From Selaginella moellendorffii (Eukaryota; Plantae; Lycopodiophyta), in the NCBI RefSeq assembly GCF_000143415.4, contig NW_003314286.1, forward strand, positions 511,766-575,765: DNA of 64,000 nucleotides, written 5' to 3'. The notes under the pieces are model-generated. The model searched no databases and was not told the origin of the DNA. It saw only the letters and a program-made list of their open reading frames with translations. Shown here piece after piece: positions 3,299 to 64,000 of this stretch. Positions within the stretch are counted from its first letter, which is position 1; every line of letters starts with the position of its first letter. A program made the translations under genes and the position numbers.

Positions 3299-3394
3299 AA
3301 GAATCTAAGTATTGTCAGTGTCATAATAAATAAACCTCATTCCCAAGAATCTGAGTATTGTCAGTGTCATAATAAATAAACCTCATTCCCAAGA
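3299..3394 (+). repeat. 46-bp tandem duplication upstream of ORF 3483
   Basis: AAGAATCTRAGTATTGTCAGTGTCATAATAAATAAACCTCATTCCC starts at 3299 and again at 3345. Confidence 0.9.
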
Positions 3395-32165: not shown

Positions 32166-32221
32166 GTCGCCAACAGCAGCTCGCCAGCACCCTTTCCAGC
32201 GCGCCACCAGCTCCAGCAAAG

Positions 32222-42152: not shown

Positions 42153-43961
42153 TTAGAGCTGACAGATGAAAAGCTAGTAGCTGGAAATAACGTGAGGCCA
42201 CACGCCATTCACCACTGCATCAGATGTCTTGAGGCTGCATCCTAAGATGGCGTGAGGCTACACGCCATTTGTAACCGGACTGCACTCGAGAGCCCAATCG
42301 GTGCATGCCAATGTTGCTACTGAATGGCATTTGGCCTCATGCCATTTTCTACTTGGCCTAAAAGACTTACCATTTGAAGCCGAATGGAGGCGTGACAATC
42401 GAGGCCAGACTCGCTGGCGAATGTGCACTGTGTGTGCAGCAGATCGTAGCAGCAAGGCTACTCTGCCACTTAACAGTTGGAGAGTGGCGCTGAAATCTCC
42501 CGGGACACCAAGTGGGCTGCGTGTGGGTGGCGGAGTGGGCGGCGGAGTTGGCGGCGAAGTTACAAACTGGGTGTGTCTTGAAGTGGACGCCGATGCACAC
42601 GAGCGCGATGCGAGTGCGAGTGTGATGCAAGCGCGAGTGGATGCCGATGCACACAAGAAACCTGTAGAGAAGGTAGATGAGTGCGAATGTGAGCGTGATC
42701 GCGAGTGGGAGCGCGATGCGAGTGCGAGTGTGATGCGAGCGCGAGTATGAAGCAAAATGCAAAACCTAACCTCACACACGCGAAATGTCACAACGGTTGG
42801 TAATCCTGCCACATCATCATTCCTCGGACTTGGGCGCCACCATTAATTTCTGGATTGCCGCACGCATGCAAGCACGCAAAATCCAAAAGAAATCCGCAAC
42901 GTCATCATTCCTCGGACTGCATGCACGCGAAATCCAAAAGAAAGATCATGATTGGGATATCATTTAATACCCTCGCTATATTTATACCATGCATGATTGG
43001 ATATTCCAAAGCATCTTGTATTTCCAAAAATGGCAGATGTTCAGCTGAATAAAGAAATTCTATCTGTTTCTATTTTTCTCTCAAATCAATATTATAGCGT
43101 GTGGGCTCATGCAATTTTGAATTAAAGAAACCCAAAAAACGTTGGACCCAAAATATTTTGAAAAAACCCAAAAAACCCTAAACATTTTAAACCTAAAAAT
43201 CCAGGCGTTCTGTGGCGTTATTCCTTGAATGGCGTGTGGGCGCATGCCATTTTCAGGGCCAAATGCTGAATGGAGAAAAATTCCCTTTCAGTGCAAATGC
43301 TGCAAGAGGCAGATGCCAAGCACAAAAGACTGTAACTACCTCACATGACACAGATAAACTTTTCTCTATTTGGCAAAGATAAACTTTATAGCGTGTGGGC
43401 TCATGCAATTTTGAACCCAAAAAATGCACCAAAAAATTCTCGGCGTCATCTGGCATTATCTCTTGAATGGCGTGGGGCCGCATGCCATTTTCAGGGGCAC
43501 ATAGGAGTATATTCCGAGGATATTCTGACACGCGCGAGATTTTTTTGAGTTTTCTGGAGATCCAACCGTTAGATCGCAACTAGATTTTACAGAATGGTAT
43601 ACAATGTCTTTCTTGATGACCCTGCAAAGAAGCATCTCGATCGGACACCACATGAGACCACACGAGCCTTGCAATGTTTCAGGGGCATTTGCCATAGATC
43701 CGACCGTTATTTTGCTCTAAGATTTTACAGTTTGGTGTGCATTGACCTTTCCATCGACACTGCAAAGGGACATCACAATCAGATGCGGGATCACAAGAAA
43801 CTAACTTCACTAACTCTGGTTTCACCAAGATCTACGTAAGGAGTTATGAAATGAAAGGACCCTCTCTATTGAAATGTGTTTATGGTCTTAGGGGCATTGT
43901 GACATATCAAAGGATTTTGCATCAAGTTCTGTATTTGCATGTTTATCAAGCTACTGAATTG

Positions 43962-43988
43962 CTAAACCCTAAACCCTAAACCCTAAAC
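43962..43988 (+). repeat. Short plant telomere-type repeat (CCCTAAA)3; (CCCTAAA)4 at 58648-58681 in copy 2
   Basis: CTAAACCCTAAACCCTAAACCCTAAAC read directly. Confidence 0.85.
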
Positions 43989-45133
43989 ATGTGGTAAATG
44001 CTGCATGAAGAAAGATGCCCTTTCTGGGCAAATGCTGTAAGAGGCAGATGCCGAGCAGATGTATCTCAGGCTAGCGAAGGGGACAAACGAAAGCTAGCTA
44101 TAGACGAGATGCAAATAGATTACTAGGCTGGTCCTGCGAAAATCAAAAACCATAATTGAAAACATTGAAAATGGAAAAAGAAAGGTTTATAATATTTTTG
44201 AATTTTAAGCAACCAAAGGAATGTAAGTAGGGCATGTTTTTGTAAGTTTAAAAATGCCTCAACCACTTAAATTCCCAAGTAAATAAAGCTGTTTCTATTT
44301 TTGGTACAGGTAAACTTTATAGCGTGTGGGCTCATGCAATTTTGAACCCAAAAATGCACCAAAAAGTGCTCGACTAGCATTATTCTTTGAATGGCGTGTG
44401 GCCTTATATTGCCATAAATGGACATACACACACAGCATAATTATTCCTTTACACAGTGAATAATCTTGGCGCGGATCGCTGACATGGCATGGCAAAGTTC
44501 GAATCACTGACATGGCATGGCAAAGTTCGAATCACTGACATGGCACAGCTGGATCGAGGCAAGGACATGATGTGACAAAGTTCAACCTCCGACAGCAAAG
44601 TCTAGAAGCTACTCAGTTTGAAATTTGTCAGAGGAGTCATAAGATCTGGTTTGTCAGAGGATTTGATGTGACGTTCAAGCGTGTGTTATTTTTGAATTCT
44701 CGAACTCATTCCTAGGTCTATCATTTTTGTGCGCCGTGTTCTTGGTTCCGCTGAGCGCAGTGAGCGCTGCTTGTGTAAGCGGCGTTGTGAGCTGTGGTTT
44801 ATGCGTCTACGAGCGGTTGCGGCATTGCGAGCGCCATTGCGAGCGGCAGTTTATGCAAGTGGCAGTTTGTGCGAGCGGCGCTACGAGCAGTTGCGGTGTT
44901 GCGAGTGGCGCTACGAGTAGTTGCAGTGTTGCGAGCGGCATTGTCTTTGGTGTGGCTACCGCTTCCTCTTGATATTCGGCACTTGTGCTTCCTGGTATGT
45001 TCACCATGGAATGGCTTAGGACCACATTTAGAAATGGCATGAGGCCACATGCCATCTTGGGCCCTTGCAATTTCATGGCTAGCGTATTGTCATGTATGTT
45101 TTTACTTGCCTGCAGCTGTGTGTATATCAAGAT

Positions 45134-45322
45134 GGCATGAGGCCTCATGCTATCTTTGGCCCCTGCTAGCCTATTGCCATATTCCTTTTGCCTTGCTGCA
45201 ACTGTATATATTTTTGTATGGGTGACTAGTCACGCACACAAAAATATATATAGTTGCAGCAAGGCAAAAGGAATATAGCAACAGGCTAGCAGGGGCCAAA
45301 GATAGCTGTGAGGCCTCATGCC
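45134..45322. repeat. ~190-bp near-perfect loopless palindrome, present only in copy 1
   Basis: Centre GTGACTAGTCAC (45222-45233); arms GCTATCTTTGGCCCCTGCTAGCCT...TATTCCTTTTGCCTTGCTGCAACT and its reverse complement. Confidence 0.92.
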
Positions 45323-45513
45323 CATTAGTGGTACCACTAATGGCATGAAGGCTCATGCCAATTTTGTGAATGCGAAATTTCACGTGGGTGTCAATAGCAT
45401 GTTTGAATAATGGCATGTGGCCGCATGCTATTGAGGTTGTTTGGTATGTTATGATTTAGGCCATTCTCCAATCATTTTTTGTATGGTCTTAACTTTTTTT
45501 CTGCACTTTCAGA

Positions 45514-48500
45514 ATGGCCTTCAGGGTTGGGGAAAAGGTTTACATTTTAAATGGTGGGAAGAGAGTTGCAAAAGGGACCCTTGTGTCTATGGATCGGAAC
45601 TTTGTTATACACTGTTAAAGGCTTGGGGAAGGCAATGCTGCTGTATCAGTAGAGACTGTCTTCAATGGGAATGTGGTCGCTATTGAACAAGGAGAGATGG
45701 TCGTCGGGGTAAATGTTGTTGTTGCCTTGAAAAATCTTCAGAAGAAAGCAGATGTTGGGGACAGCGCAAGTGCGACGCATGTTCCCTCCGTGGATCTTAA
45801 GAACCGTGCTACATGGATTCAGGCGAAGGTGTTTCTAAACAACCCCGAGGGGGAGGTGGTAGCTGAGGGCTTAGCCACAGTTGTCGATCCAAGAGATGCG
45901 GTTGCTAATCAAGAATTGGGCTGGGATGATATTGGAGTTGCGATTTTAGAGGTTGTTGACACAGAAGAAAACAGTCTGACTATTGGAAGCATTGTGCGGT
46001 GGAAATTGAGGCACTTAGTGTTTGAGAATGTGAAGGATTCACAATCAAACACCACTAAAACTGATGACAGAACATCTCTTCATGGGAAAAGAAAGTACAC
46101 CTTCCTAAAGCGCAACCAAAGGGATCTGAGTAACGAATCGAAAAGGCAGAAAATGGCGATGGAGGTTCGAATGGTCTCGACAGTTGCTTGTTGCAAGAGG
46201 AGGTGCTGTCAACATGCTGATTGGGATGCTATTGAAGAGGAGAGAGCAAGATACAAGACATTGTCCTGGAAGGCAGCTCGCAATTTTGTGTATGAGGCAT
46301 TACGGTCATCTGTTGATGCTTCAGAACATCAGGTGGGGGGCATGGTCTTCCAAAGGGGTTTGGTCTGCATGAAGGCATGGAGAATCATTTATGGAGTCCC
46401 TCGAACCACATTCTACAGAATCAAAACTGAGTTCGAGGAACAAAGGGTTCAACAGGTAGTCCATGGGAACGACGGTACGCACAAAACCAGGGGTCATGTT
46501 GTATATGGAGAGGCAATCTTCAAGAGGTTTGTCGAGACATGTAGCGAGCAGCAACCACATAAAACCCGCCTCTTGGAAGATGGAACACGAGACACCCAAC
46601 AAGTTCTCCCTTCCATGTATACCAAGGGGGCCATATTGGAAGATGTGAATCGGGAATTCCAGAGTAATGGCTACAGGAAGCTGAGCCAATCTAGATTTAG
46701 TAGATTGTGGAGCAACAGGTTCAGGGATGTGAGTATAGGAAAGTACTCCAGCTTTTCAAAGTGTGACGAGTGCACTACTATCAAAATGGCTTTGTCGAAG
46801 AATTCTTGCAGCGCTCAAGAGCGAGAGACATTGGTTAGAAGGCGGCTCGACCACAACATCGAGCAGAGAAGCTGCAGGACTGCATATTATCATAACAGGA
46901 TTCTCTCCATGGAGAGACCTGACTCTTACCTCTGCATCATCCACGACAAAATGGACCAGAAAAAGACGTGCTTACCTCGACTCAATCCTGCCCCCAAGGC
47001 AATCTCTTCATCCATGCAGCTGCCTGTGTCTCTGTTTGGCATAATCGCTCATGGGCATGGTGCCCAGAACTATGGGAACTTCTTTGTACCTCTATGGGGT
47101 GGCGGGGGTGCAAACATGATGATTGCGTCCCTAGCAAAACACTTAAGGTCTCTGCAAAGTGCGCAGACTGAGTTGAACGGCCAACCCTTGCACAAGGCCC
47201 TTGTCGATCGAACCCCATACAGGGTTCAGCTGGAGGAGGAGCAAAGGCTTGCAGTATCGCATGGGGCCCCATGCCATCCCAGTGAATATGTTGGCCGTCA
47301 GATTGTAGGGTTATCACGTGAGGCCTCATGCCATTCCGACGAGGCTGGTCGCCCGGTGAATGCACAGCCTCATCCAAACGAAGCAGAATCTCAAGGAAGT
47401 TCTTGCGGCCGATGTGGCCTTCCACCCCATCTTCTGCTCCAAACAGACAATGCTGGCAGTGAGAACAAAAACATGTACGTCTTCGCGTACTTGGCGATGC
47501 TTGTTGCCAAAGGCATATTTGAAACGGTTACACTTGGCTTTCTCATGGTTGGGCACACTCATGAAGACGTCGATGCCATGTTCAGTCACCTGGCAGAGTC
47601 CCTCCGGCGATCTAATGTCCTCACCCTCCCACAACTCTATGATGAATTCCAAAATTGCATCAAAGGCACTGTTGAAGCTGCACTTTTGACAGAGGTTCCA
47701 GACTTTAAGGGGTTTGTAAGAGGCTACATCAGGGACGGATCCGAAACGCTGATTGGCCACTCCAAGCCTCTTCAGTTTCATTTCAGCATGCGTGACGGTG
47801 CTCCAGTGATGAGGTACAAGATGAGAGAATGGGACACAGTGTGGCTGCCAGTGGACGGCATTGAACTCTTCAAGAGAGATCCCATAACTGGGGAACCTAT
47901 GATTCCTCAGGGTTCCCCACGGCCGATGCACCCGGATGGACTCAAAGACCAGGAAAGTATAGTGGCCAGGATTAGACAGCATATTGCCTTCTGGAAGAGG
48001 GGGTTGGTGTTTGGTGGAGAATCCTATTTTCAGAGGTGCAAGCCTTTGCTCGAATACTGGGAGAAGATTATATCTGCTATCCAAAATGGGCTGGTTGTAT
48101 ATGAAGAATTGGAAGAGTCCTTTTGGCCAGAACCCAGAGCACCAGATAGTAGCGGAACAATGTCCTTTGGAAATGCAGTGACAGATAACGATGTTGAGGA
48201 TCACTATTGTGGGCCGAGGAACAAGAAGCTGGATTCAGCATTCAATCTAGTACAGGTCTGCAAAGGAATGGTCGTGCTTGTCAAACCCAGTAATAAAAAA
48301 CAAATGATATGGGTGGGGCACTGCATCACTGATGCAGAGGAGGACGTGGAAACTAACTCCTTCAATGTAACTGTGGAGTGGTTCAAGCCAAGTTCCGGAT
48401 ATACGAAGGATTGCCTAGAAAAGAGATGGGTGCTGAATCCAAGGGATCCTAGCATGAGCATATCGGTGGATAATGTTGTGCATGGTTGGATGCGGAAGCA

Positions 48501-48582
48501 GAGTGCCACCATCACCTTGCCAGACCATGCAAGAGATGCAGCAAGAGCATTCATAACCCGGGTTCAAGGTGAGATTCATTAA
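45514..48582 (+). pseudogene. Sola-like transposase, copy 1, premature TAA at 45616-45618
   Basis: Near-identical to 60012-63080; GAA-to-TAA at codon 35; the remaining 969 codons are open. Confidence 0.85.
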
Positions 48583-49295
48583 TATTCCTTTACTAAGTTT
48601 CTAATGTATTTTATTTTAAGGTGAACAATCCGAATCTGAATCAGAGGAGGCGTGATGGCATGTGGCCTTACGCCATTCCTAGGTGAGATGATACAAATAA
48701 CAAGTATAAATTCTTAGTTGTTCTAGCAAATCTTACTTAAAGTTTAAGGTGAACAAGCCGAATATGAATTCATCGGATTGTTATAACAAATTGCGAGGTG
48801 ATGGCATGAGGCGATACGCCATTTGAGAGTGGTAGCCATTCTTATATAAGGTGAGTGAAATATTTATTAGAAATACCTCATTCAATTGTGCACTTCTAAG
48901 TCTTGGTCCACTCAGTACTGTTTGCATGTTTTTATTTTAATTCTTTCTCTAAAATGTTATTTAGCATGTGGCTTCATGCCATTGCTCTCCATAATCATGC
49001 ATTGAATTTTTCTATCCTTGCATAATACTTCTCCATATATATAGCATGTGCGCACATGTGATATGGTTCATTAGGTTTGATGTAATGTGTGAGGTAAAAC
49101 AAAGATGATGTGACATATGCATTTACCAATCACACGTGCATAAATCTAATAATATGGTGTGTGGCCCATATTAATAGCACATAAACCCATATTGTGGGCT
49201 TACGTGCTTTATATACCATCATTCCCTTGCAGCGTGTGTGTTGGTTTCCTTTTATAACACAACGAACTCTATATTTTAGGGTGAAGAGCGTTCTC

Positions 49296-49553
49296 ATGGC
49301 AAGCACAAAATCTGTAAGTGAGGCAGAAAAGGAGACGGAGAAGGAGATAGGTGAAGATGTAGAATATATAAGTCTTCCAAACTCCCCGTACTATACTTCA
49401 AGTGATCATTTTTTTGAACAAACGGCAACATTAACAACTATCGAGAACGCCCCAGTAACGTCAGAGACAACAATCCAAAGCAAAACAACTGACCCGGAGA
49501 AGGATGATAGTACTGTTGAGAGTACCAAAAAGGAGGTGTCCACTAGCGCTTAG
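49296..49553 (+). CDS. Small orphan ORF (85 aa) of the SLPxSPYYT family
   Basis: Open in both copies; homologous to 2575-2823. Confidence 0.6.
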   Translation: MASTKSVSEAEKETEKEIGEDVEYISLPNSPYYTSSDHFFEQTATLTTIENAPVTSETTIQSKTTDPEKDDSTVESTKKEVSTSA

Positions 49554-50189
49554 GCTTATAATGGCGTGTGCCCTCATGTCATTTACTTGATCACCAAATA
49601 CCTTTTTCCCTTTGCACTAGTATATCTTAATACCGGTTTGAGAAATAGAATGGCATGTGCCCTTAGGCCTTTTACTAAATCACCTTTGAAAGAAATGCAA
49701 GCCTCTATGTCGTAAAAAAAAGGTACTAGAGAAATTCCTTAATAATATGAATGTTATTTAGTTTCATGAAAATACACTAAGGGTCAAATGAGTTAAATGA
49801 CTTCTCCAGACTAGCAATGCCTCTTGCTACACCTTCACAATTAGATTCGTTAGAAAAAGATAACATTGAATAATATCTAAATGTTCTCACCATTAAGTTA
49901 TATGTCTGGCTAATAGGAATGACGTTCATCTTGGAAAGCTCACCACACGCTCAATGAACAAACAAATAGTGTGTGCGCGCATGCCATCGCTCTTTTTTAG
50001 CTTCAGATTCGGCTTGTTCACCTTGACAATGAGATTTATTATACAACCAGATGGACTCAGTCTGGACATAAAGTCACCGCGCTAGTCACCATGCCCCAGA
50101 TATGTCTAGCCCCTGGACAAAAAACATATAATTTCACGTCATTTTCAAATACTTGAAAATTTGTACCTAGTCCCATTTTACTGAATAAA

Positions 50190-50211
50190 TCCCACTTTAA
50201 TGAAATAGAGC
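50190..50211 (-). repeat. Right TIR of Sola-like copy 1
   Basis: TCCCACTTTAATGAAATAGAGC is a 21/22 reverse-complement match to 51086-51107; LTR similarity starts at the next base. Confidence 0.75.
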
Positions 50212-51085: not shown

Positions 51086-51107
51086 GCTCTATTTCGTTAA
51101 AGTGGGA
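51086..51107 (+). repeat. Left TIR of Sola-like copy 2
   Basis: GCTCTATTTCGTTAAAGTGGGA, inverse of 50190-50211. Confidence 0.75.
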
Positions 51108-51514
51108 ATTGTCATTATCCCACTTGTAAAATAAGGTTTCCAAACCTTTATATAGTATATAAATATAACAAAATTCAACTGCATTGAGGCACATGCCATT
51201 TTATTTTAAACAAGGAAATGTCTACTCAATCACTTCTCACTGCTTCACCTCTCTCTTCTCCTTGTCATTGTCGTCCAATTTCTTTCCATCCTTTTAATAT
51301 TGGCTCAGTTGCTCCGAGTCTAGGTGGAGCCCAAGTCCCCATTCAATCTTTACTTTCCCCTTATTAATAAAACAACTTCGTAGACTTCCAATAACATGCT
51401 GTAACACTTCTAGTATAATGCAAATCCTCTCAAAGAATTGTCTTTTAATATTAATACAATGGCATGGAACCCCATGCCATAATAAGTTACATTTTTAAAT
51501 AAATACATGCCATC

Positions 51515-54500
51515 TCAGACTGTTATTTTTTGCCTCCAACGCCTATACAATAATCTTGGAATTTCATCACTCTCCACACTATCAGGATTTAAACCCAATA
51601 GTAATGCCATCTCTTCTCTAATACGTCCACGCTCATGTTCAGTGGTCGAAGAACCCATCCGGTTGAGCAGATTATGGAGATGCGGATAGTGCTTGGCTAG
51701 ACAATATACATGCCATAAATGATGACTGGTGTCTGTCCGATCAAATGGCTTCTGATATACCGTTCCATCTGCCATTTGGTTGATTTCTGCAGCCACCTCC
51801 TGGACTGGCCGGTTCTCTATCACCATCGCTTCAAGCCGTTTTGCAAGGTCCCCCAGAACATACGGTTTCTTCTCCCTAGTTTCTATACTGCAAGAGATGG
51901 GGTGCACTGCATATGTGTGCGTGTTCGCTGCAGTTTTAATCGGCGAGTCATCGATGATGAGGATTTCACTTGACCTAGCAGTCCGGTTTATCACTACAGC
52001 CTCTGCCTTGACGAAGATGGGCTTGCTACCCCTCACATGGACCATAGTCAAGCAATCCTCCTGCGTTAGGAGAAAGTCAAATGGTAATATTACTCGCGTC
52101 TGATCGTGCATCATCTGTAGCAACGTTAATGCATTGTGGCGCATCATGGATGTCCAAACTCCCAATTGCAAATTGAACCCTGCCCTCTGTTTTAAGTGTC
52201 GCATGGTCATTATTAGATCCCGCAGTTTCTCCCGTGTGATTAATGTGAATCTGTCTCTTTTGACCAACTTGCGACCGCAGGCTTTGGAGGGTGCAGTGAC
52301 ATTCGAGGACGAGCCACGCTCATGGGAGAAAAGGACACCGTTCAGATCAAAAACGATACAGTACTTTCGCCGTGACTCTGAAATGAAATGCGTCAGCATA
52401 AAAAATGGTACAAGTCAATTTTACCATCTACAATATTAGCGAATGGTGCTCCCGATGGTCGTTCAGAGGGTTTTGGTCGAGGAAACGTGAAGGGCGGAAA
52501 TACTCTCCTCTGCAATGTGGGGTCAATCGCATCCGATGGCGTGTGGGCACATGCCATTTCAGCTGTAGACTCTGGTACAACTGGCTCAACAGTGGCATGG
52601 GGTGGTTCCGATGGCGTGTGATCACACGCCATTTCAGCTGGTGCCTCCGTTGGCAAAGTGGACATGACCAAACAGGCAGCAGGGGCGGTGTAGGGAGGTT
52701 CCAACGGCGCGTAGTCAGACGATTGGGCACACGTTGGAAATGAGGATACGACCGGCTCGGCGGCTGGGGCGGCCTCATGCGGGTCCAATGGCGCCTGGTC
52801 ACCGTCAGTTGGATACGTGGACAAGATTGACTCAGTGGTATGGGCAGCATCAAGTGGAGCGTGGTCAGCTTGCTTGGCGTTGATATGGATAGTAGCCTCC
52901 ACCAGCTCTGATGACTCTTGCATGCAAGTAGAGTCCACTGGCGGATCCATATGCATGTCCAAATATCTCCCTTCGATTGAGATGGTATCCTCCCGTGCTA
53001 CTAAAAACAAACTCATTAGCACATTGAATCGACTATACTGTATTTACCATCAACTGCTATTGAGGAACTAGGACCGATATCACTTGGGCGCACTGCTGAT
53101 TCTGAAGGATTGGACATACGTTTCGACCCTTGCTTGGCACTATCCTTCCTCGACACTAAAGGCTAGAGTTTGTATCTTAATTCAACTGAATAATCTCTAC
53201 TTACCATTTCTTCTGCGACCTACATGGACAATGTTAGAAATGGTAAAAGGTTAGGAATGGATGTACTATTATTTACCTGATGGTTTGTCTTGTATGACCT
53301 TCCTCCGCTGCTCTTTGGCCACCTCAGGCTGGCCATCATCGTCATCATCGTCATCGTCGTTATTGTGATCGTCACCATTGTGAGGACCATCCAAGTCCTC
53401 TTCGTCCTCCTCTTCTTCGTCCTCCTCTTCGTCCTTCTGGTCTTCCTGCTCATTATCTTTCTCTGGCTCCTCATCCCCCTCTTGCATTTCTTCCATAGGC
53501 TGCTCAGGCTGGATTGCTTGTTTTTCCAGGACCATCTTGGAAAAATCATCTGGCCGAGTCTCCATCTCAAAATACAAGACATCCATAGCCTGTTTTAGTG
53601 CGTGACCTAGGACCGTATTCTCACCCGACTGTCTTAACATGGTTTCTGCACGTTCTTGCACCCTTCGAAGACGACGAGATGAGAAAAATGTGGCCCTGAC
53701 TTGAAAAGCATCCCTCATCCATTGTACCTCTCCATTGAGATTGGGGAAGGGGAGTCCGCCATAGGAATCTGAGTCAGAAGGTGGTGACTGGCTCCTTTCA
53801 CTCAGCCCTTGATCTGCAATGAATGGCATGAGCACACACGCTATAACCGCGAGGCATTACCTATCATCTTTTCGTTGCCCTTCTTCCTTTTCGAATCAAA
53901 CGCCTCTGATCCCGACGACTGTCCAACGTGCTTTCGCTTTTTATGACCACTGTCAGTTTGAGCTTGGCTGGTGCTTGCCTGTTTTGCCTTTGAAGAAGTG
54001 TCTCCTGCAAGGAATGGCATGAGACCACACGCCATTGCAAATATAATTTGTACCTCCTTTTTTCCTATTGCTTGTCTGTTTGTCCTTCTTCGACGCGCCA
54101 CCAGTGCGCTTTTCAGTCCTCGTGTCTGAATATTCACAACGATCTATAATCAAAATGGCGTGAGGCCTCATGTGACCTTACCTTGTGCAGGTTGTGACCT
54201 CGGCCTAACATCAGTAGCTGTTAACGCCGTTTCAGCATCTGGGGGTGGCCACGCTCCTGCATACAGAGCTTGTGAGATAACATTTAAACTTAAAGTGCGT
54301 ACTCACCAGGTTCGTAGAGAAAATACTGTTTTTCTTTGGCAACTGTAATTATATGCTCCATTGAAGTCACCTCTTCAATGGAGTTTGTCACCGCAACACA
54401 CGGGACACCCTTGAGTAGTGCGGCTCGAAAGAATAGTCCGCCGCAGTTGTACTCGACAACGCATTTGCCCTTGGAGTCACCCGCTATTGCGTTGAAGACC

Positions 54501-56869
54501 CAGCTGAGCATTTCCCATGCTGCACCTGGAGCTTTCTTTGGATTCGAAAGCTCCATAGCCGTCTTCAGTTCCTCAGGCACGGGTAAATTGACCTCCCTCA
54601 GATCAATTCGATCGGCTTTGTTGAACGAAGCTGGGAAGTCACTCCAGTCCCACTCTGCTGCAAGACCAATAACAAGGGCGACTGTGAAGATGCGGACATT
54701 CGTCGGTATCTTCTTCTTAGCCATTATCCCATGGATCTCCCGCATCTCCTTGCCTTTCAACCGAGCCTTCACCTCGTTCAAGGCCTTCCAGAACTTGTGA
54801 TAGGATTCGGAGTCGTAGATCATATAGTGGACTGAAGATTCCACCTCCGCAAGTCCCACCATTAAGTCAATGATGGAGCTGACTTCGTCTGCATGAGTGA
54901 TCTCCTCGTTTGTGAAGTCCATCACACAAAAGATGTTCTTGACCTGCTCATCTCCGCGGGAAACGATGCTCCTCCACCTTTGATCCTCATCCGAATTCAC
55001 GTATACCCGGTAAGGTTCTCGATAGGCCTCTGCTGCGGGGTCGAGCTGTTTCTGAAGCCGGCGGTCGACATCCCTCTTAATGAAATTTGGATACTGATCC
55101 AACTTCTCAGCTTTACTTTTCGTGGCATCCCGCAGCAGATCGATGAACTTGGGGGCCCCCTTCACGTACTCGTCGATGTCTTCATTTGACAAGTCCAGCT
55201 CTTCCATCATCTCTTGCGTGGTGTCGATGCTCACCCTTGCCACGGCCACTTGCTCGAAGATCCAATCCTTCAATAGCGCACGAGCTCTCAGAGTCGTGCA
55301 CAAGTCCTCGTATGTCACAATATGGCCGGGAGTCATTTTGGTCTTGTTGAAGACTACCTCACCAAGTAGAAGAGCATTAGCCACTGTCAGAAGGTCGTCG
55401 TCGTCTAGAGACCGCGAGAAACGCAAGGCGTTGAGCTTCAAATCATTGGGCTTCCGGCCGTCCTCCACACCCATTGAGTTTAGCAACTCCCCGTCATGGT
55501 ACCTCCTTAGCACATCTACCCATTTGTCAAAAACAACTTTTGTCGCGAGTAGAATGTTATGGATGCTGAGTGTGTCATTGACCCCCAGTGTTTTCGAGAG
55601 AAGACTCGAGAATTCCTGCAATGGAAATGGCGTGAGGCCACATGCTATGCCACATGCAACGAGGCTTACCTGCCAGGCGCTAGTTGCTAGTGCACGTCCT
55701 TGTCCTGGTTTTTGTGGCTTCTTCAGTTGAACCCAGAGCTTCCGTGTTCGTGCCAATGTCTCGTGCAGACCCGATTTGTAGCACGTTTCTTGCTTGACAT
55801 TCTGCGCGTGGGAGATGTATATGATAGATCGGAGGGGCGAGTTGCCTTTTATCAGGCGGACAACTCTTGTCTTGAAGACTTTCTTCACCTCCTCGCCCAC
55901 CATAATATCCACAACTATCTGTTGCATCGCCAAGCTAGAATGCTGCCCGGAGACGGCATAGAACCGGATGTTCTGATCGTCCAACACCTTCCTATTGATC
56001 AAGTCTGGAAACCTCGTCTCGCCCTTCATTGTTCGGTAGTAGGGGATCACGTCTGCGATGTCGGGTGTTACTGGACTTGCCAGCATCTTCTGCTTCAGTT
56101 TCTCCACCCACTCATCAGATACTAGCCTGTGGTTGTATTTGCTTTGGATCTCGATACGGCTCACGTCGATTGTATATACTTTGTTGGAATAGTAACAAGT
56201 ACTATTATCTGCGACGATTTTTGCTGCCTCTTCTTGCTCTTTCTGCTCTTTGCGGCTCTTCTTTTTGGTGGGTGTAGTGTTCGAACCCGAGGCAATGGCA
56301 TCACCGAGTAGCTTCTTTTTTGGAGCAGCAGAGTCGGACGTCGGCTTGAGCTTGACCACCCTTTTCTGCTTCGGGGTAGTTTCCAGATCGACCCCCTTCC
56401 CCTTCGCTTCGCAAACTGGAGGCACTCTCAACGGCTCAATGTTGGAATATAGTTTTTGAACATCGCCGTAGGTGAGGTCCGTGGATTCCATGTGATCTTC
56501 ATAGACCCGCAGCGTCTTTGAAATTGTGGGCCTCCTGGACAACCTCTCCCTAGCTCCCTCTAGGAATTCCTCATAGCCGCTGCCCCCCTCCGGGAAGCCG
56601 CTAGGATGTGCAAGGTGGATCTTGAAGGCGGACGCTGTCTCTACCACAAGTGCCAGTCCATATTCTTGCATGGAACTGCATGGAGTGTCTGTCACTTGGA
56701 TGAGGATCCCCATGCATTCTTTTCTCCCACCATCTGTGTTGTACAGCATCAGATCCTCGCCTTCCATCCCGAAAGTCCAACTGGTGAGCTCCTCCCCCTT
56801 CTCTGCATCCACATTGACAGTGGCTGGAAGAAGAACGCAATTCCTCGCCTGTTCAAAAATGCACAACAA
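51515..56869 (-). CDS. Spliced ~1,600-aa fusion: ParB/Srx-like domain, degenerate N6/N4 MTase-like domain, acidic disordered linker, FCP1/NIF-like HAD domain; 5' exons probably extend to ~57500
   Basis: ParB-like: YTIDVSRIEI..NHRLVSDEWVEKLKQKM...FYAVSGQHSSLA...HAQN. MTase-like: FCVMDFT and MLSWVF...KCVVEYNCGGLFFRAALLKGVPCVAV. NIF: IVFDLNGVL, VWTS, LIIDDSPIK. Eight phase-1 GT-AG introns between 54306 and 52378 join the track ORFs with no stop; a further 54-nt in-frame intron lies at 55616-55669. Confidence 0.75.
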
Positions 56870-59800
56870 TTAGAGTTGACAGATGAAAAGCTAGCAGCTG
56901 GAAATAACGTGAGGCCACACGCCATTCACCACTGCATCAGATGTCTTGAGGCTGCATCCTAAGATGGCGTGAGGCTACACGCCATCTGTAACCGGACTGC
57001 ACTCGAGAGCCCAATCGGTGCATGCCAATGTTGCTACTGAATGGCATGTGGCCTCATGCCATTTTCTACTTCGTCTAAAAGACTTACCATTTGAAGCCGA
57101 ATGGAGGCCGTGACAATCGAGGCCGGACTCGCTGGCGAATGTGCACTGTGTGTGCAGCGGATCGTAGCAGCAAGGCTACTCTGCCACTTACAGTTGGAGA
57201 GTGGTGCTGAAATCTCCCGGGACGCCAAGTGGGCTGCGTGTGGGTGGTGGAGTGGGCGGCGGAGTTGGCGGCGAAGTTACAAACTGGGTGTGTCTTGAAG
57301 TGGACGCCGATGCACACGAGCGCGATGCGAGCGCGAGTGGACGCCGATGCACACGAGAAACCTGTAGAGAAGTGAGCGTGATCGCGAGTGGGAGCGCGAT
57401 GCGAGCGGGAGCGCGAGTGTGCGAGCGCGAGTACAAAGCAAAATGCAAAACCTAACCTCACACGCGCGAAATGTCACAACGGTTGGTAATCCCGCCACGT
57501 CATCATTCCTCGGACTTGGGCGCCACCATTAATTTCTGGATTGCCGCGCGCATGCAAGCATGCAAAATCCAAAAGAAATCCGCAACGTCATCATTCCTCG
57601 GACTGCATGCACGCGAAATCCAAAAGAAAGATCATGATTGGGATATCATTTAATACCCTCGCTATATTTATACCATGCATGATTGGATATTCCAAAGCAT
57701 CTTGTATTTCCAAAAATGGCAGATGTTCAGCTAAATAAAGAAATTCTATCTGTTTCTATTTTTCTCTCAAATCAATATTATAGCGTGTGGGCTCATGCAA
57801 TTTTGAACCAAAGAAACCCAAAAAACGTTGGACCCAAAATATTTTGAAAAAACCCAAAAAACCCTAAACATTTTAAACCCAAAAATCCAGGCGTCCTGTG
57901 GCGTTATTCCTTGAATGGCGTGTGGGCGCATGCCATTTTCAGGGCCAAATGCTGAATGGAGAAAAATTCCCTTTCAGTGCAAATGCTGCAAGAGGCAGAT
58001 GCCGAGCACAAAGGACTGTAACTACCTCACATGACACAGATAAACTTTTCTCTATTTGGCAAAGATAAACTTTATAGCGTGTGGGCTCATGCAATTTTGA
58101 ACCCAAAAAATGCACCAAAAAATTCTCGGCGTCATCTGGCATTATCTCTTGAATGGCGTGGGGCCGCATGCCATTTTCAGGGGCACATAGGAGTATATTC
58201 CTAGGATATTCTGACACGCGCGAGATTTTTTTGAGTTTTCTAGAGATCCAACCGTTAGATCGCAACTAGATTTTACAGAATGGTATACAATGTCTTTCTT
58301 GATGACCCTGCAAAGAAGCATCTCAATCGGACAACACATGAGACCACACGAGCCTTACAATGTTTCAGGGGCATTTGCCATAGATCCGACCGTTATTTTG
58401 CTCCAAGATTTCACAGTTTGGTGTGCATTGACCTTTCCATCGAAACTGCAAAGGGACATCACAATCAGATGCGGGATCACAAGAAACTAACTTCACTAAC
58501 TCTGGTTTCACCAAGATCTACGTAAGGAGTTATGAAATGAAAGGACCCTCTCTATTGAAATGTGTTTATGGTCCTAGGGGCATTGTGACATATCAAAGGA
58601 TTTTGCATCAAGTTCTGTATTTGCATGTTTATCAAGCTACTGAATTGCTAAACCCTAAACCCTAAACCCTAAACCCTAAACATGTGGCAAATGCTGCGTG
58701 AAGAAAGATGCCCTTTCTGGGCAAATGCTGTAAGAGGCAGATGCCGAGCAGATGTATCTCAGGCTAGCGAAGGGGACGAACGAAAGCTAGCTATAAACAT
58801 GACGGGATGCAAATAGATTACTAGGCTGGTCCTACGAAAATCAAAAACCATAATTGAAAACATTGAAAATGCAAAAAGAAAGGTTTATAATATTTTTGAA
58901 TTTTAGGCAACCAAAGGAATGTAAGTAGGGCATGTGTTTGTAAGTTTAAAAATGCCTCAACCACTTAAATTCCCAAGTAAATAAAGCTGTTTTTATTTTT
59001 GGTACAGGTAAACTTTATAGCGTGTGGGTTCATGCAATTTTGAACCCAAAAATGCACCAAAAAATGCTCGACTAGCATTATTCTTTGAATGGCGTGTGGC
59101 CTTATGTCGAGCATTATTCTTTGAATGGCGTGTGGCCTTATATTGCCATAAATGGACGTACACACACAGCGTAATTATTCCTTTACACGGCGAATAATCT
59201 TGGCGCGGATTGCTGACATGGCATGGCAAAGTTCGAATCACTGACATGGCACAGCTGGATCGAGGCAAGGACATGATGTGACAAAGTTCAACCTCCGACA
59301 GCAAAGTCTAGAAGCTACTCAGTTTGAAATTTGTCAGAGGAATCATAAGATCTGGTTTGTCAGAGGATTTGATGTGACGTTCAAGCGTGTGTTATTTTTG
59401 AATTCTCGAACTCATTCCTAGGTCTATCATTTTTGTGCGCCGTGTTCTTGGTTCCGCTGAGCGCAGTGAGCGCTGCTTGTGTAAGCGGCGTTGTGGGCTG
59501 TGGTTTATGCGTCTACGAGCGGTTGCGGCATTGCGAGCGCCATTGCGAGCGGCAGTTTATGCGAGTGGCAGTTTGTGCGAGCGGCGCTACGAGCAGTTGC
59601 GGTGTTGCGAGCGGCGCTACGAGTAGTTGCGGTGTTGCGAGCGGCACTGTCTTTGGTGTGGCTACCGCTTCCTCTTGATATTCGGCACTTGTGCTTCCTG
59701 GTATGTTCACCATGGAATGGCTTAGGACCACATTTAGAAATGGCATGAGGCCACATGCCATCTTGGGCCCTTGCAATTTCATGGCTAGCGTATTGTCATG

Positions 59801-60011
59801 TATGTTTTTACTTGCCTGCAGCTGTGTGTATATCAAGATGGCATGAGGCCTCATGCCAATTTTGTGAATGCGAAATTTCACGTGGGTGTCAATAGCATGT
59901 TTGAATAATGGCATGTGGCCTCATGCTATTGAGGTTGTTTGGTATGTTATGATTTAGGCCATTCTCCAATCATTTTTTGTATGGTCTTAACTTCTTTTCT
60001 ACACTTTCAGA

Positions 60012-63000
60012 ATGGCCTTCAGGGTTGGGGAAAAGGTTTACATTTTGAATGGTGGGAAGAGAGTTGCAAAAGGGACCCTTGTGTCTATGGATCGGAACTT
60101 TGTTATACACTGTGAAAGGCTTGGGGAAGGCAATGCTGCTGTATCAGTAGAGACTGTCTTCGATGGGAATGTGGTCGCTATTGAACGAGGAGAGATGGTC
60201 GTCGGGGTAAATGTTGTTGTTGCCTTGAAAAATCTTCAGAAGAAAGCAGATGTTGGGGACAGCGCAAGTGCGACGCATGTTCCCTCCGTGGATCTTAAGA
60301 ACCGTGCTACATGGATTCAGGCAAAAGTGTTTCTAAACAACCCCGAGGGGGAGGTGGTAGCTGAGGGCTTAGCCACAGTTGTCGATCCAAGAGATGCGGT
60401 TGCTAATCAAGAATTGGGCTGGGATGATATTGGAGTTGCGATTTTAGAGGTTGTTGACACAGAAGAAAACAGTCTGACTATTGGAAGCATTGTGCGGTGG
60501 AAATTGAGGCACTTAGTGTTTGAGAATGTGAAGGATTCACAATCAAACACCACTACAACTGATGACAGAACATCTCTTCATGGGAAAAGAAAGTACACCT
60601 TCCTAAAGCGCAGCCAAAGGGATCTGAGCAACGAACCGAAAAGGCAGAAAATGGCGATGGAGGTTCGAATGGTCTCGACAGTTGCTTGTTGCAAGAGGAG
60701 GTGCTGTCAACATGCTGATTGGGATGCTATTGAAGAGGAGAGAGCAAGATACAAGACATTGTCCTGGAAGGCAGCTCGCAATTTTGTGTATGAGGCATTA
60801 CGGTCATCTGTTGATGCTTCAGAACATCAGGTGGGGGGCATGGTCTTCCAGAGGGGTTTGGTCTGCATGAAGGCATGGAAAATCATTTATGGAGTCCCTC
60901 GAAGCACATTCTACAGAATCAAAACTGAGTTCGAGGAACAAAGGGTTCAACAGGCAGTCCATGGGAACGACGGTACGCACAAAACCAGGGGTCATGTTGT
61001 ATATGGAGAGGCAATCTTCAAGAGGTTTGTCGAGACATGTAGCGAGCAGCAACCACATAAAACCCGCCTCTTGGAAGATGGAACACGAGACACCCAACGA
61101 GTTCTCCCTTCCATGTATACCAAGGGGGCCATAATGGAAGATGTGAATCGGGAACTCCAGAGTAATGGCTACAGGAAGCTGAGCCAATCTAGATTTAGTA
61201 GATTGTGGAGCAACAGGTTCAGGGATGTGAGTATAGGAAAGTACTCCAGCTTTTCAAAGTGTGACGAGTGCACTGCTATCAAAATGGCTTTGTCGAAGAA
61301 TTCTTGCAGCGCTCAAGAGCGAGAGACGTTGGTTAGAAGGCGGCTCGACCACAACATCGAGCAGAGAAGCTGCAGGACTGCATATTATCATAACAGGATT
61401 CTCTCCATGGAGAGACCTGACTCTTACCTCTGCATCATCCACGACAAAATGGACCAGAAAAAGACGTGCTTACCTCGACTCAATCCTGCCCCCAAGGCAA
61501 TCTCTTCATCCATGCAGCTGCCTGTGTCTCTGTTTGGCATAATCGCTCATGGGCATGGTGCCCAGAACTATGGGAACTTCTTTGTACCTCTATGGGGTGG
61601 CGGGGGTGCAAACATGATGATTGCGTCCCTAGCAAAACACTTAAGGTCTCTGCAAAGTGCGCAGACTGAGCTGAACGGCCAACCCTTGCATAAGGCCCTT
61701 GTCGATCGAACCCCATACAGGGTTCAGCTGGAGGAGGAGCAAAGGCTTGCAGTATCGCGTGGGGCCCCATGCCATCCCAGTGAATATGTTGGCCGTCAGA
61801 TTGTAGGGTTATCACGTGAGGCCTCATGCCATTCCGACGAGGCTGGTCGCCCGGTGAATGCACAGCCTCATCCAAACGAAGCAGAATCTCAAGGAAGTTC
61901 TTGCGGCCGATGTGGCCTTCCACCCCATCTTCTGCTCCAAACAGACAATGCTGGCAGTGAGAACAAAAACATGTACGTCTTCGCGTACTTGGCGATGCTT
62001 GTTGCCAAAGGCATATTTGAAACGGTTACACTTGGCTTTCTCATGGTTGGGCACACTCATGAAGACGTCGATGCCATGTTCAGTCACCTGGCAGAGTCCC
62101 TCCGGCGATCCAATGTCCTCACCCTCCCACAACTCTACGATGAATTCCAAAATTGCATCAAAGGCACTGTTGAAGCTGCACTTCTGACAGAGGTTCCAGA
62201 CTTTAAGGGGTTTGTAAGAGGCTACATCAGGGATGGATCCGAAACGCTGATTGGCCACTCCAAGCCTCTTCAGTTTCATTTCAGCATGTGTGACGGTGCT
62301 CCAGTGATGAGGTACAAGATGAGAGAATGGGACACAGTGTGGCTGCCAGTGGACGGCATTGAACTCTTCAAGAGAGATCCCATAACTGGGGAACCTATGA
62401 TTCCTCAGGGTTCCCCACGGCCGATGCACCCGGATGGACTCAAAGACCAGGAAAGTATAGTGGCCGGGATTAGACAGCATATTGCCTTCTGGAAGAGGGG
62501 GTTGGTGTTTGGTGGAGAATCCTATTTTCAGAGGTGCAAGCCTTTGCTCGAATACTGGGAGAAGATTATATCTGCTATCCAAAATGGGCCGGTTGTATAT
62601 GAAGAATTGGAAGAGTCCTTTTGGCCAGAACCCAGAGCACCAGATAGTAGCGGAACAATGTCCTCTGGAAATGCAGTGACAGATAACGATGTTGAGGATC
62701 ACTATTGTGGGCCGAGGAACAAGAAGCCGGATTCAGCATTCAATCCAGTACAGGTCTGCAAAGGAATGGTCGTGCTTGTCAGACCCAGTAATAAAAAACA
62801 AATGATATGGGTGGGGCGCTGCATCACTGATGCAGAGGAGGACGCGGAAACTAACTCCTTCAATGTAACTGTGGAGTGGTTCAAGCCAAGTTCCGGATAT
62901 ACGAAGGATTGCCTAGAAAAGAGATGGGTGCTGAATCCAAGGGATCCCAGCATGAGCATATCGGTGGATAATGTTGTGCATGGTTGGATGCGGAAGCAGA

Positions 63001-63080
63001 GTGCCACCATCACCTTGCCAGACCATGCAAGAGATGCAGCAAGAGCATTCATAACTCGGGTTCAAGGTGAGATTCATTAA
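60012..63080 (+). CDS. Sola-like (DUF7869-type) DDD transposase, 1022 aa, with accessory N- and C-terminal domains
   Basis: HGN; FSKCDEC; IIHDKMDQ (D1); LQTDNAGSENKN (D2); FLMVGHTHEDVDAMFS (D3). Uninterrupted ORF within TIRs. The superfamily call rests on motif resemblance. Confidence 0.85.
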   Translation: MAFRVGEKVYILNGGKRVAKGTLVSMDRNFVIHCERLGEGNAAVSVETVFDGNVVAIERGEMVVGVNVVVALKNLQKKADVGDSASATHVPSVDLKNRATWIQAKVFLNNPEGEVVAEGLATVVDPRDAVANQELGWDDIGVAILEVVDTEENSLTIGSIVRWKLRHLVFENVKDSQSNTTTTDDRTSLHGKRKYTFLKRSQRDLSNEPKRQKMAMEVRMVSTVACCKRRCCQHADWDAIEEERARYKTLSWKAARNFVYEALRSSVDASEHQVGGMVFQRGLVCMKAWKIIYGVPRSTFYRIKTEFEEQRVQQAVHGNDGTHKTRGHVVYGEAIFKRFVETCSEQQPHKTRLLEDGTRDTQRVLPSMYTKGAIMEDVNRELQSNGYRKLSQSRFSRLWSNRFRDVSIGKYSSFSKCDECTAIKMALSKNSCSAQERETLVRRRLDHNIEQRSCRTAYYHNRILSMERPDSYLCIIHDKMDQKKTCLPRLNPAPKAISSSMQLPVSLFGIIAHGHGAQNYGNFFVPLWGGGGANMMIASLAKHLRSLQSAQTELNGQPLHKALVDRTPYRVQLEEEQRLAVSRGAPCHPSEYVGRQIVGLSREASCHSDEAGRPVNAQPHPNEAESQGSSCGRCGLPPHLLLQTDNAGSENKNMYVFAYLAMLVAKGIFETVTLGFLMVGHTHEDVDAMFSHLAESLRRSNVLTLPQLYDEFQNCIKGTVEAALLTEVPDFKGFVRGYIRDGSETLIGHSKPLQFHFSMCDGAPVMRYKMREWDTVWLPVDGIELFKRDPITGEPMIPQGSPRPMHPDGLKDQESIVAGIRQHIAFWKRGLVFGGESYFQRCKPLLEYWEKIISAIQNGPVVYEELEESFWPEPRAPDSSGTMSSGNAVTDNDVEDHYCGPRNKKPDSAFNPVQVCKGMVVLVRPSNKKQMIWVGRCITDAEEDAETNSFNVTVEWFKPSSGYTKDCLEKRWVLNPRDPSMSISVDNVVHGWMRKQSATITLPDHARDAARAFITRVQGEIH

Positions 63081-63368
63081 TATTCCTTTACAAAGTTTCT
63101 AATGTATTTTATTTCAAGGTGAACAATCCGAATCTGAATCACAGGAGGCTTGATATAGTGTGTGAGGTAAAACAAAGATGATGTGACATATGCATTTACC
63201 AATCACACGTGCATAAATCTAATAATATGGCGTGTGGCCCATATTAATGGCACATAAACCCATATTGTGGGCTTACGTGCTTTATGTACCATCATTCCCT
63301 TGCAGCGTGTGTGTTGGTTTCCTTTTATAACACAACGAACTCCATATTTTAGGGTGAAGAGCGTTCTC

Positions 63369-63626
63369 ATGGCAAGCACAAAATCTGTAAGTGAGGCAGA
63401 AAAGGAGACGGAGAAGGAGATAGGTGAAGATGTAGAATATATAAGTCTTCCAAACTCCCCGTACTATACTCCAGGTGATCATTTTTCTGAACAAACGGCA
63501 ACATTAACAACTATCGAGAACGCCCCAGTAACGTCAGAGACAACAATCCAAAGCAAAACAACTGACCCGGAGAAGGATGATAGTACCGCTGAGAGTACCA
63601 AAAAGGAGGTGTCCACTAGCGCTTAG
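63369..63626 (+). CDS. Small orphan ORF (85 aa) of the SLPxSPYYT family
   Basis: Copy of 49296-49553; homologous to 2575-2823. Confidence 0.6.
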   Translation: MASTKSVSEAEKETEKEIGEDVEYISLPNSPYYTPGDHFSEQTATLTTIENAPVTSETTIQSKTTDPEKDDSTAESTKKEVSTSA

Positions 63627-64000
63627 GCTTATAATGGCGTGTGCCCTCATGTCATTTACTTGATCACCAAATACCTTTTTCCCTTTGCACTAGTATATCT
63701 TAATACCGGTCTGAGAAATAGAATGGCATGTGCCCTCAGGCCTTTTACTAAATCACCTTTAAAAGAAATGCAAGCCTCTATGTCGTAAAAAAAAGGTACT
63801 AGAGAAATTCCTTAATAATATGAATGTTATTTAGTTTCATGAAAATACACTAAGGGTCAAATGAGTTAAATGACTTCTCCAGACTAGCAATGCCTCTTGC
63901 TACACCTTCACAATTAGATTCGTTAGAAAAAGATAACATTGAATAATATCTAAATGTTCTCACCATTAAGTTATATGTCTGGCTAATAGGAATGATGTTC

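Follow-up and report, generated by a model that had tools for sequence, protein, structure and literature searches.

A predicted fusion of ParB-like, methyltransferase-like and NIF/FCP1-like domains encoded by a palindrome-rich, putative DNA transposon of Selaginella moellendorffii

Results

The gene described here encodes a predicted fusion protein and lies on a mobile-element-like repeat of the lycophyte Selaginella moellendorffii. The DNA analyzed, called the window below, is a stretch of 64,000 nucleotides (nt) from assembly GCF_000143415.4 (contig NW_003314286.1, positions 511,766 to 575,765), and all coordinates are those of the window. Positions 51969-64000 repeat at 37268-49927 with 96-99% identity, giving two copies of a roughly 13-kb unit. 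Each copy has two divergently transcribed genes, a DUF7869 open reading frame (ORF) on the plus strand and the fusion gene on the minus strand; neither copy has both ends within the window. The unit is very probably a cut-and-paste transposon, and a host single-copy gene was rejected. The fusion gene of copy 1 is decayed: it contains three stops, has lost 59 nt in one deletion, and is frameshifted by 1 nt, and its NIF part is cut at 37268 by a Gypsy-type sequence. The features of the locus are collected in Table 1.

The splice model of the copy 2 gene was built from the minus strand, for which 50500-58000 was read, and predicts 11 exons encoding 1,626 amino acids (aa). Eight phase-1 GT-AG introns of 47-57 nt join an 859-codon ORF to the NIF ORF, and the frame is free of stops down to 51515. 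A preliminary description of this DNA had proposed eight phase-1 introns of about 45-60 nt, with their junction peptides and a stop-free frame; every intron was found where it had been placed, and the peptides and the frame were confirmed on the minus strand. Two features had escaped that description: a likely ATG micro-exon and, within the 859-codon ORF, a 54-nt in-frame intron. The seven internal exons between the eight phase-1 introns all have lengths that are multiples of three. Retention of any of seven of these introns would cause a frameshift, and the remaining one contains a stop. The additional intron (55669-55616) has a branch-like word at -18 and one palindrome inside; the S. moellendorffii protein XP_024528744 reads WQ-EF across the matching point, and several homologous ORFs terminate there at W-x-V.

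Candidate introns were defined by a GT[AG][AC] donor, a length of 45-60 nt, and a YAG acceptor, and were sought in a 2.1-kb stretch and in 300 block shuffles. The real sequence contained 96 open intron chains; there were none in the 300 shuffles and none in nine opposite-strand frame combinations. Chance splicing was rejected, since no shuffle permitted an open chain. Six of the eight introns are obligatory in every open chain, and the first and seventh have frame-compatible alternatives. A branch-like CT[ACG]A[CT] word occurs in seven of the eight; the candidate introns with such a word number 11, all overlapping these seven introns, against a shuffle mean of 1.96. A stricter rule requiring the word gives no full chain because intron 53204-53156 has none. 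Copy 2 is shorter than copy 1 at five indels, by 9, 3, 15, 12, and 6 nt, and linker exons contain four of these; the frame-breaking indels (59 nt and 1 nt) are the lesions of copy 1. We are highly confident that the transcript is spliced through to NIF. The single spliced protein of the preliminary description is thus supported by the open chain, the shuffles, and the same domain order in gene models of the liverwort Riccia. The linker at aa 831-1339 has a hydrophobic fraction of 0.19, compared with 0.34-0.37, and is likely disordered because of this low hydrophobic content.

Table 1. Features of the fusion gene and of the element that carries it
Feature	Position	Strand	Details
Exon 1, likely ATG micro-exon	57088..57090	-	putative start; ATG then GTAAGT donor
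Intron after exon 1	57087-56849	-	239 nt, phase 0, in-frame join to exon 2
Exon 2, aa 2-394	55670..56848	-	N-terminal region, basic linker, ParB/Srx-fold domain
ParB/Srx-fold domain (predicted)	56197-55784	-	about aa 219-356; SGQHS motif at 55951
Extra intron	55669-55616	-	54 nt, phase 0, in-frame, stop-free, inside 859-codon ORF; GTAAGC...TTGCAG
Exon 3, aa 395-830	54307..55615	-	helical domain and beta-class methyltransferase fold without catalytic motif
Helical domain in exon 3	about aa 395-512	-	overlays ParB/KorB DNA-binding region
Methyltransferase fold in exon 3	55018-54320	-	about aa 594-826; beta-class, predicted
Intron	54306-54257	-	50 nt, GT-AG, phase 1; GTGAGT donor ahead of TAA 54290
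Exon 4	54182..54256	-	75 nt, linker; 12-nt in-frame indel between copies
Intron	54181-54126	-	56 nt, GT-AG, phase 1
Exon 5	54054..54125	-	72 nt, basic linker
Intron	54053-54005	-	49 nt, GT-AG, phase 1
Exon 6	53861..54004	-	144 nt, basic linker
Intron	53860-53814	-	47 nt, GT-AG, phase 1
Exon 7	53277..53813	-	537 nt, acidic run; 15-nt indel between copies
Intron	53276-53220	-	57 nt, GT-AG, phase 1
Exon 8	53205..53219	-	15-nt micro-exon; both neighbouring introns in all 96 open chains
Intron	53204-53156	-	49 nt, GT-AG, phase 1
Exon 9	53048..53155	-	108 nt
Intron	53047-53001	-	47 nt, GT-AG, phase 1
Exon 10	52425..53000	-	576 nt, Pro/Ser/Glu-rich linker; 3-nt and 9-nt indels between copies
Coding palindromes in exon 10	52536, 52611	-	two
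Intron	52424-52378	-	47 nt, GT-AG, phase 1
Exon 11, aa 1340-1626	51515..52377	-	NIF/FCP1-like HAD domain, then helical tail; stop 51517-51515
NIF domain	52363-51917	-	DLNG, WTS, K, IIDDSP motifs; Pfam PF03031
rRNA-like piece	57155..57194	-	40 nt, sense, matches large-subunit rRNA of the host; lies about 65 nt ahead of the ATG
DUF7869 ORF	59991..63080	+	1,029 aa; Pfam PF25273, E 5.8e-42; likely DDE-type transposase
Element copy 2	51086..64000		runs off window; 22 palindromes, 18 in non-coding DNA
Element copy 1	37268..50211		96-99% identical, decayed; 26 palindromes
Candidate left terminal inverted repeat, copy 2	51086..51110		25-bp arm, 92% inverted match to 50187-50211; putative assignment
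Candidate right terminal repeat, copy 1	50187-50211		25-bp arm

The 659-residue part from the ParB-like domain to the methyltransferase was modelled from 25 sequences with a mean pLDDT of 66. Foldseek matched the model to Noc, ParB, and KorB, and also to phage ParB-like proteins. In VIA-align, Z was 11.3 for ParB, 10.9 for Caulobacter ParB (rmsd 2.3 over 98 residues), and 9.3 for KorB (201 of 208 residues, rmsd 5.2), the last alignment extending into the DNA-binding region. A search of 48,161 chains placed PadC first (Z 9.8), with PadC, KorB, and pNOB8 ParB in the lead. These matches point to a predicted ParB/Srx N-terminal fold; past this domain the alignments reach model residue 327-336 at an rmsd of 5-12 and a pLDDT of 40-75. 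An alignment of 14 rows shows little or no variation at R, P, GQH, and N positions; an upstream Arg/Lys and a downstream Asn are kept around the GQH(S/T) motif. In the Atlas, the ParB-helical region lies nearest to DUF3723 clusters (0.97, 198 of 256 features); Pfam gave no PF12520 (DUF3723) match for the window protein or its relatives. No ParA partner was found among 18 of the 166 listed window ORFs that were scanned against Pfam. The similarity of the N-terminal 175 aa to relatives exceeds that of shuffles in one of five pairs. A small beta-rich domain is possible at 56848-56400 (aa 2-150), and a counterpart of marginal similarity occurs at the matching place in several relatives.

Model residues 418-650 were matched to the beta-class methyltransferases M1.HpyAVI (Z 8.6), M.MboIIA (Z 8.3), and CcrM (Z 8.2), with an rmsd of 4.3-4.9 over 160-184 residues and Z values near the caution level of the tool. 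This part is predicted to adopt the circularly permuted Rossmann fold of the beta-class N6A/N4C methyltransferases. The S-adenosylmethionine (SAM)-binding loop of this class is FxGxG; it is not kept, reading YNCGG in the window and FFSGG in Riccia. The catalytic motif (D/N/S)PP(Y/F/W), given for N6A enzymes in the accessible text of PMC4738411, is absent as well: the window has DFTN, and six aligned rows retain only the Asp. The methyltransferase is likely inactive because it has no such motif and its SAM-binding loop is degraded; an active enzyme was rejected on the loss of the catalytic motif.

The C-terminal domain matches NIF (Pfam PF03031, E 5e-06, 26.7 bits against a cut-off of 21.8; Atlas match 0.96, 209 of 256 features). 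In the numbering of HAD motifs I-IV, the first Asp, the Thr/Ser of motif II, the Lys of motif III, and the DD of motif IV are present. The signature DxDx(T/V) is replaced by DLNGV in the window and by DVEGL in Riccia, so that the second Asp is Asn in the former and Glu in the latter; motif IV is altered as well in the Riccia NIF. None of the NCBIfam FCP1/SCP models matched the window NIF domain. The nearest Atlas clusters are giant-virus FCP1-like proteins, 91-100% viral, a neighbourhood that, according to the tool, is no sign of transfer. The structure model of NIF, made from three sequences, reached a pLDDT of 37.9, and a viral fold search with it was discarded as the model was too poor. The preliminary description had named all three domains. 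Structure prediction bore out its ParB call (ParB/Noc/KorB fold, Z 9-11) and its methyltransferase call (Z about 8) and gave only a poor HAD model; its NIF call is upheld by the PF03031 match, and the DLNG that it named in place of DxDx(T/V) has Asn where the second Asp would stand.

A search of 1.84 billion representatives returned 17 matches to the fusion protein, of which 14 were kept; P0002, P0005, and P0016 were dropped as repeat-driven. The named relatives belong to S. moellendorffii, Calypogeia fissa, and Riccia sorocarpa. Among 5,542 candidates, a profile of the 14 ParB-region sequences found four long proteins, all from Riccia. Three of them have a C-terminal NIF match (two above the cut-off; one partial and below it), and all four have a weak N6_N4_Mtase (PF01555) match, below the cut-off, ahead of the NIF position. 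The order ParB-like part, weak N6_N4_Mtase, NIF is seen in KAL3676202, KAL3684434, and KAL3694944; KAL3675584 is named as an FCP1-homology protein and has a weak HAD-IIID match, and KAL3682700 has no NIF. In four gene models of R. sorocarpa, the ParB-like part and NIF belong to a single chain, which supports the fusion at the level of gene models rather than shown transcripts. The models R1sor_026150, 002456, 008595, and 025532 share with the window protein a ParB-like part, a helical part, a methyltransferase-like part, a low-complexity linker, and NIF in the same order; they differ in that the front is about 25% identical and the NIF domains are not alike pairwise, and they are annotated only as FCP1-homology proteins. 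Thus the architecture, which the preliminary description knew from no host gene, is not unique to the window and stands unnamed in public Riccia models. Exon 3 gave a profile match to KAL3676202 with a probability of 99.1 over 433 columns, and records from lycophytes and liverworts conserve the ParB-helical-methyltransferase part as one unit with about 25% identity. The seven Riccia models observed are spread over five contigs, as would be expected of mobile cargo. Word-index protein searches found nothing for the NIF ORF among 1,921 longer candidates or for the front ORF among 7,989 proteins of near length. None of 66 pattern matches in JGI metagenomes and none of 11 in viral contigs was confirmed as a relative, and the viral contigs gave no transposase; phages gave no tblastn match, and the PHROGs and PDB sequences nothing useful.

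The window contains 49 matches, at three mismatches or fewer, to the 22-bp word ATGGCRTGWGSSCWCAYGCCAT, which is two-fold symmetric: 48 in the element (26 in copy 1 and 22 in copy 2) and one in the other 37 kb, with none in each of 20 shuffles. Exact half-sites number 31 and 35 in the two copies, four in 37,267 bp, and none in the 873-bp spacer. In copy 2, 18 of the 22 palindromes fall within the 38% that is non-coding (binomial 4e-5). Seven lie in five of the ten introns of the fusion gene, several kilobases from either element end; palindromes also cluster near the candidate element ends and between the genes. The word, which the preliminary description did not mention, is the best clue to the DNA target of the ParB-like part. 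Three single matches in JGI, with no protein match, were taken as chance. In the introns at 55627, 54014, and 53823, the right half of the palindrome provides a branch-like CTCAY word, which lies 16-18 nt before the acceptor; at the RNA level the palindrome would fold into a hairpin that covers the branch site. A 79-bp fold-back (94%) lies between palindromes at 45149-45306, in copy 1 only. Between the element genes, 57.2-60.0 kb contains several 70-90-bp repeats with the palindrome at their core, along with a short array of repeats of the plant telomere type.

Judging by its D..D..D motifs, DUF7869 is presumably a Sola-like DDE transposase; its DNxxxxNKN and GHTHxxxD words presumably tie it to Sola. 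By eye, the N-terminal part of the ORF is Cys-rich and helix-rich. A literature search found no paper on DUF7869. Sola transposons have terminal inverted repeats and a 4-bp target duplication. The 25-bp inverted arms between the copies have partial repeats on the element side. Two element copies may face each other there, each ending in one arm; an independent 920-bp insert, bounded by the arms and with a 3-bp duplication, would explain them equally well. Sola1 is listed for Physcomitrella in the accessible part of PMC9033089; PMC5751038 and PMC4455052, as far as accessible, serve as background only. Compared with run X1, the changes private to copy 1 include 24 of 30 that are C>T or G>A, 20 of these at CG or CHG; this excess suggests that the element is under methylation and that silencing exists to be countered. 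The contigs of run X1 retain introns and are therefore DNA or unspliced.

Several smaller observations concern the element. Downstream of the transposase ORF of copy 1, 416 bp (48657-49072) with apparent small exons and two palindromes are missing from copy 2, and the transposase C-terminus may be spliced. Two Gypsy-type pol regions (29629-32847 and 34053-37270) are 97% identical and inverted, and the second adjoins the cut NIF of copy 1. The rRNA-like piece matches positions 3338-3373 of Rfam RF02543 with an E of 0.19, below the gathering score. More than 100 RNA reads per run match it, running off both sides. It gave no exact match in prokaryote or viral contigs and is present in copy 1 too, near 42440-42475; a perfect GTAAGT donor word at its start suggests that it may begin a 5' untranslated region intron. 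A contig of run X12 matches 56690-57082, is diverged there, and continues into other sequence; a few sense reads in run X8 share its variants, and a fragment of another element copy may be transcribed elsewhere.

Discussion

In this study, a gene on a putative DNA transposon was found to encode, in one predicted spliced protein, ParB-like, methyltransferase-like, and NIF/FCP1-like parts. We tentatively favour the view that it is an accessory protein recognising the palindromes of its own element, working like Arabidopsis VANC or plasmid KorB. By binding the 22-bp palindromes scattered through the element, the ParB-like part would label that element as its own. The site being two-fold, and the closest folds being the palindrome-binding ParB, Noc, and KorB, the palindrome suits a dimer; a dimer of ParB-like domains might well read it, in analogy to parS, NBS, and O_B for ParB, Noc, and KorB, a step to which we give slightly more credence than to the view as a whole. 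More doubtfully, the dead methyltransferase could serve as a DNA-gripping or methyl-reading module, and NIF, on its flexible tether of 500 residues, could act as a weak phosphatase or phospho-protein trap reaching host chromatin factors. The outcome would be local anti-silencing of the element, as for VANC, which is likewise a speculative possibility.

The closest functional parallel is VANC of the Mutator-like VANDAL elements. VANC21 binds a short motif that, within its own element, is concentrated in terminal and intergenic regions and in introns, and VANC lowers DNA methylation (accessible text of PMC5735166). Like the VANC gene, the fusion gene is the second one on a putative plant DNA transposon and goes with an element-specific motif in introns, intergenic, and terminal non-coding parts. 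The systems differ in that no sequence or domain link was found, the transposase here is DUF7869, and the motif is a dispersed 22-bp palindrome instead of an 8-9-nt word in tandem repeats. Membership in VANC was rejected; for the large ORFs of the element (the linker exons being outside the scan), Pfam gave only NIF and DUF7869. With ParB/Spo0J, Noc, and RK2 KorB (7bnk, 7bm8, 7ol9, 8qa9), the protein has in common a ParB-type N-terminal fold, as predicted, a putative helical region behind it that overlays their DNA-binding domain in the model, and many palindromic sites on the same DNA. It differs from them in having GQHS for GxxR, 10-17% identity, an intron-split nuclear gene, a fused methyltransferase fold and NIF, and no ParA within the ORFs scanned. 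The permuted fold order is shared with the beta-class methyltransferases M.MboIIA, CcrM, M.PvuII, bdelloid N4CMT, and Marchantia DN4MT1, whereas (D/N/S)PP(Y/F/W) is lost and the SAM loop degraded in the window protein; Marchantia DN4MT1, an active host gene, retains TSPPY (bioRxiv 2021.02.12.428880, in the part accessible).

ParB and methyltransferases are linked in phage (ParB-terminase) loci, according to section 8 of PMC4738411, and such loci are a likely distant source of the pairing. None of the eukaryotic clades in that section has this architecture, and the supplements of the paper may list such proteins. To the FCP1/SCP/NIF HAD phosphatases (PF03031, including giant-virus FCP1-like proteins), the likeness lies in the match above the Pfam cut-off, the first Asp, and the later motifs; the differences lie in DLNG, in the finding of no BRCT or other FCP1 parts, and in the HAD fold, which is putative here. 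DUF3723, a conserved auxiliary cargo of fungal Starship elements (bioRxiv 2021.12.13.472469, accessible part), is the top Atlas look-alike of the ParB-helical region and also conserved mobile-element cargo, but PF12520 does not match here and Starships move by a tyrosine recombinase. A literature search, mostly of open-access titles and abstract starts, found no description of the fusion architecture or the palindrome; the element is apparently an undescribed, real variant of a cargo-bearing plant DNA transposon.

Several points weigh against the favoured view. No observation shows that the palindrome belongs to the fusion protein and not to the transposase; the palindrome pattern was derived from the element itself, and the two copies are not independent. 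The co-occurrence of gene, transposase, and palindromes is known from one window. The structure model took in the 18 intron-encoded residues, and the helical domain was modelled at a pLDDT of 40-75. GxxR is the CTP-binding motif of canonical ParB clamps; its arginine is replaced by Ser/Thr in all 14 aligned rows (GQHS in the window), so that CTP-gated clamping may be lost. Pairwise comparison shows no likeness between the window and Riccia NIF domains (score 35 against 33.2 +/- 4.7 for shuffles, 175 of 500 of which reach it), and the shared fusion therefore rests on domain order; the S. moellendorffii models end just past the methyltransferase fold, with no NIF. One of the in-frame indels sits in a triplet repeat, in which multiples of three are favoured, and the point differences that separate the two copies appear neutral (23 synonymous changes, 68 replacement changes, and three stops in 1,475 codons). 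The junction reads that the preliminary description called for did not appear: there was no splice joint in the four runs examined of 23 listed. The gene body was almost without coverage in the two raw RNA runs, with 4 and 3 of 30 bins covered when about 12% of each run was read.

The strongest competing explanation, which we find rather doubtful, assigns the palindromes to the transposase as binding sites, or regards them as by-products of local duplication, with the fusion protein being a transposition helper or target-site reader without a specific site. The Cys-rich, helix-rich N-terminal part of the transposase could bind DNA, and the clustering of palindromes near the candidate ends and between the genes agrees with this. 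A palindrome can seed rearrangement, as the 79-bp fold-back between palindromes indicates, and splicing may help keep it, since three introns take their branch-like word from it. Transposase sites, however, are normally subterminal, and the seven copies in accessory-gene introns are far from the ends; moreover, the best structural matches are palindrome-binding proteins. A family of land-plant DNA transposons might also have made the ParB-methyltransferase part into a parS-like self-recognition system, in which a nucleotide-gated clamp loads on dozens of palindromes of its own element, spreads, and keeps silencing off. In that case the dead methyltransferase and the tethered pseudo-phosphatase would hold off host silencing, and the module would be of bacterial or phage origin; both parts of this proposal we consider improbable. 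Still less probable is passive cargo, that is, captured domains without present function whose frame is open through recent copying. The degeneracy of all three catalytic motifs, the neutral substitution pattern, and the little RNA favour it, but the conservation of the ParB-helical-methyltransferase unit at about 25% identity across lycophytes and liverworts, with its (near-)invariant positions, needs long selection.

Two further explanations concern the C-terminal half. The preliminary description linked NIF to the C-terminal domain (CTD) of RNA polymerase II (Pol II), and a DNA-binding front could tether an active FCP1/SCP-type phosphatase that dephosphorylates the CTD on the element. This draws on the Pfam match above the cut-off and on the motif I-IV residues kept. 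DXDXT/V is a conserved catalytic site in which both aspartates are catalytic (PMC7281111, accessible text), but the second is Asn here and Glu in Riccia; with no FCP1/SCP model matching and the nearest clusters giant-virus, the Pol II CTD link was not sustained. CTD dephosphorylation would also tend to damp the transcription of the element itself, and we regard this explanation as very unlikely. We give equally little credence to two separate genes, a ParB-methyltransferase gene ending at TAA 54290 or soon after and an independent NIF gene. The lack of junction reads in the four runs, the S. moellendorffii models that stop past the methyltransferase fold, and KAL3682700 without NIF would suit two genes; the strong GTGAGT donor ahead of the TAA, the unbroken chain of symmetric exons, the in-frame indels in linker exons, and the fused Riccia models argue for one.

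If the protein binds the palindrome, protein and site would form a compact pair and bring ParB-type DNA recognition into the plant nucleus; transposon anti-silencing would be wider than VANC, and a sequence-specific chromatin tool would be at hand. If the parS-like proposal were true, a ParB/KorB-type sliding clamp would operate on eukaryotic nuclear chromatin as part of a second, independently evolved anti-silencing system. Even without binding, an undescribed transposon-borne family is named in lycophyte and liverwort genomes, the Riccia genes annotated as "FCP1 homology" and otherwise unnamed are probably mobile cargo, and a further entry of the beta-class methyltransferase fold into early land plants is recorded.

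Other features of the window

A Gly-rich tandem repeat ORF region lies at 8344-9204, and ARAGORN called a doubtful tRNA at 9433-9519.

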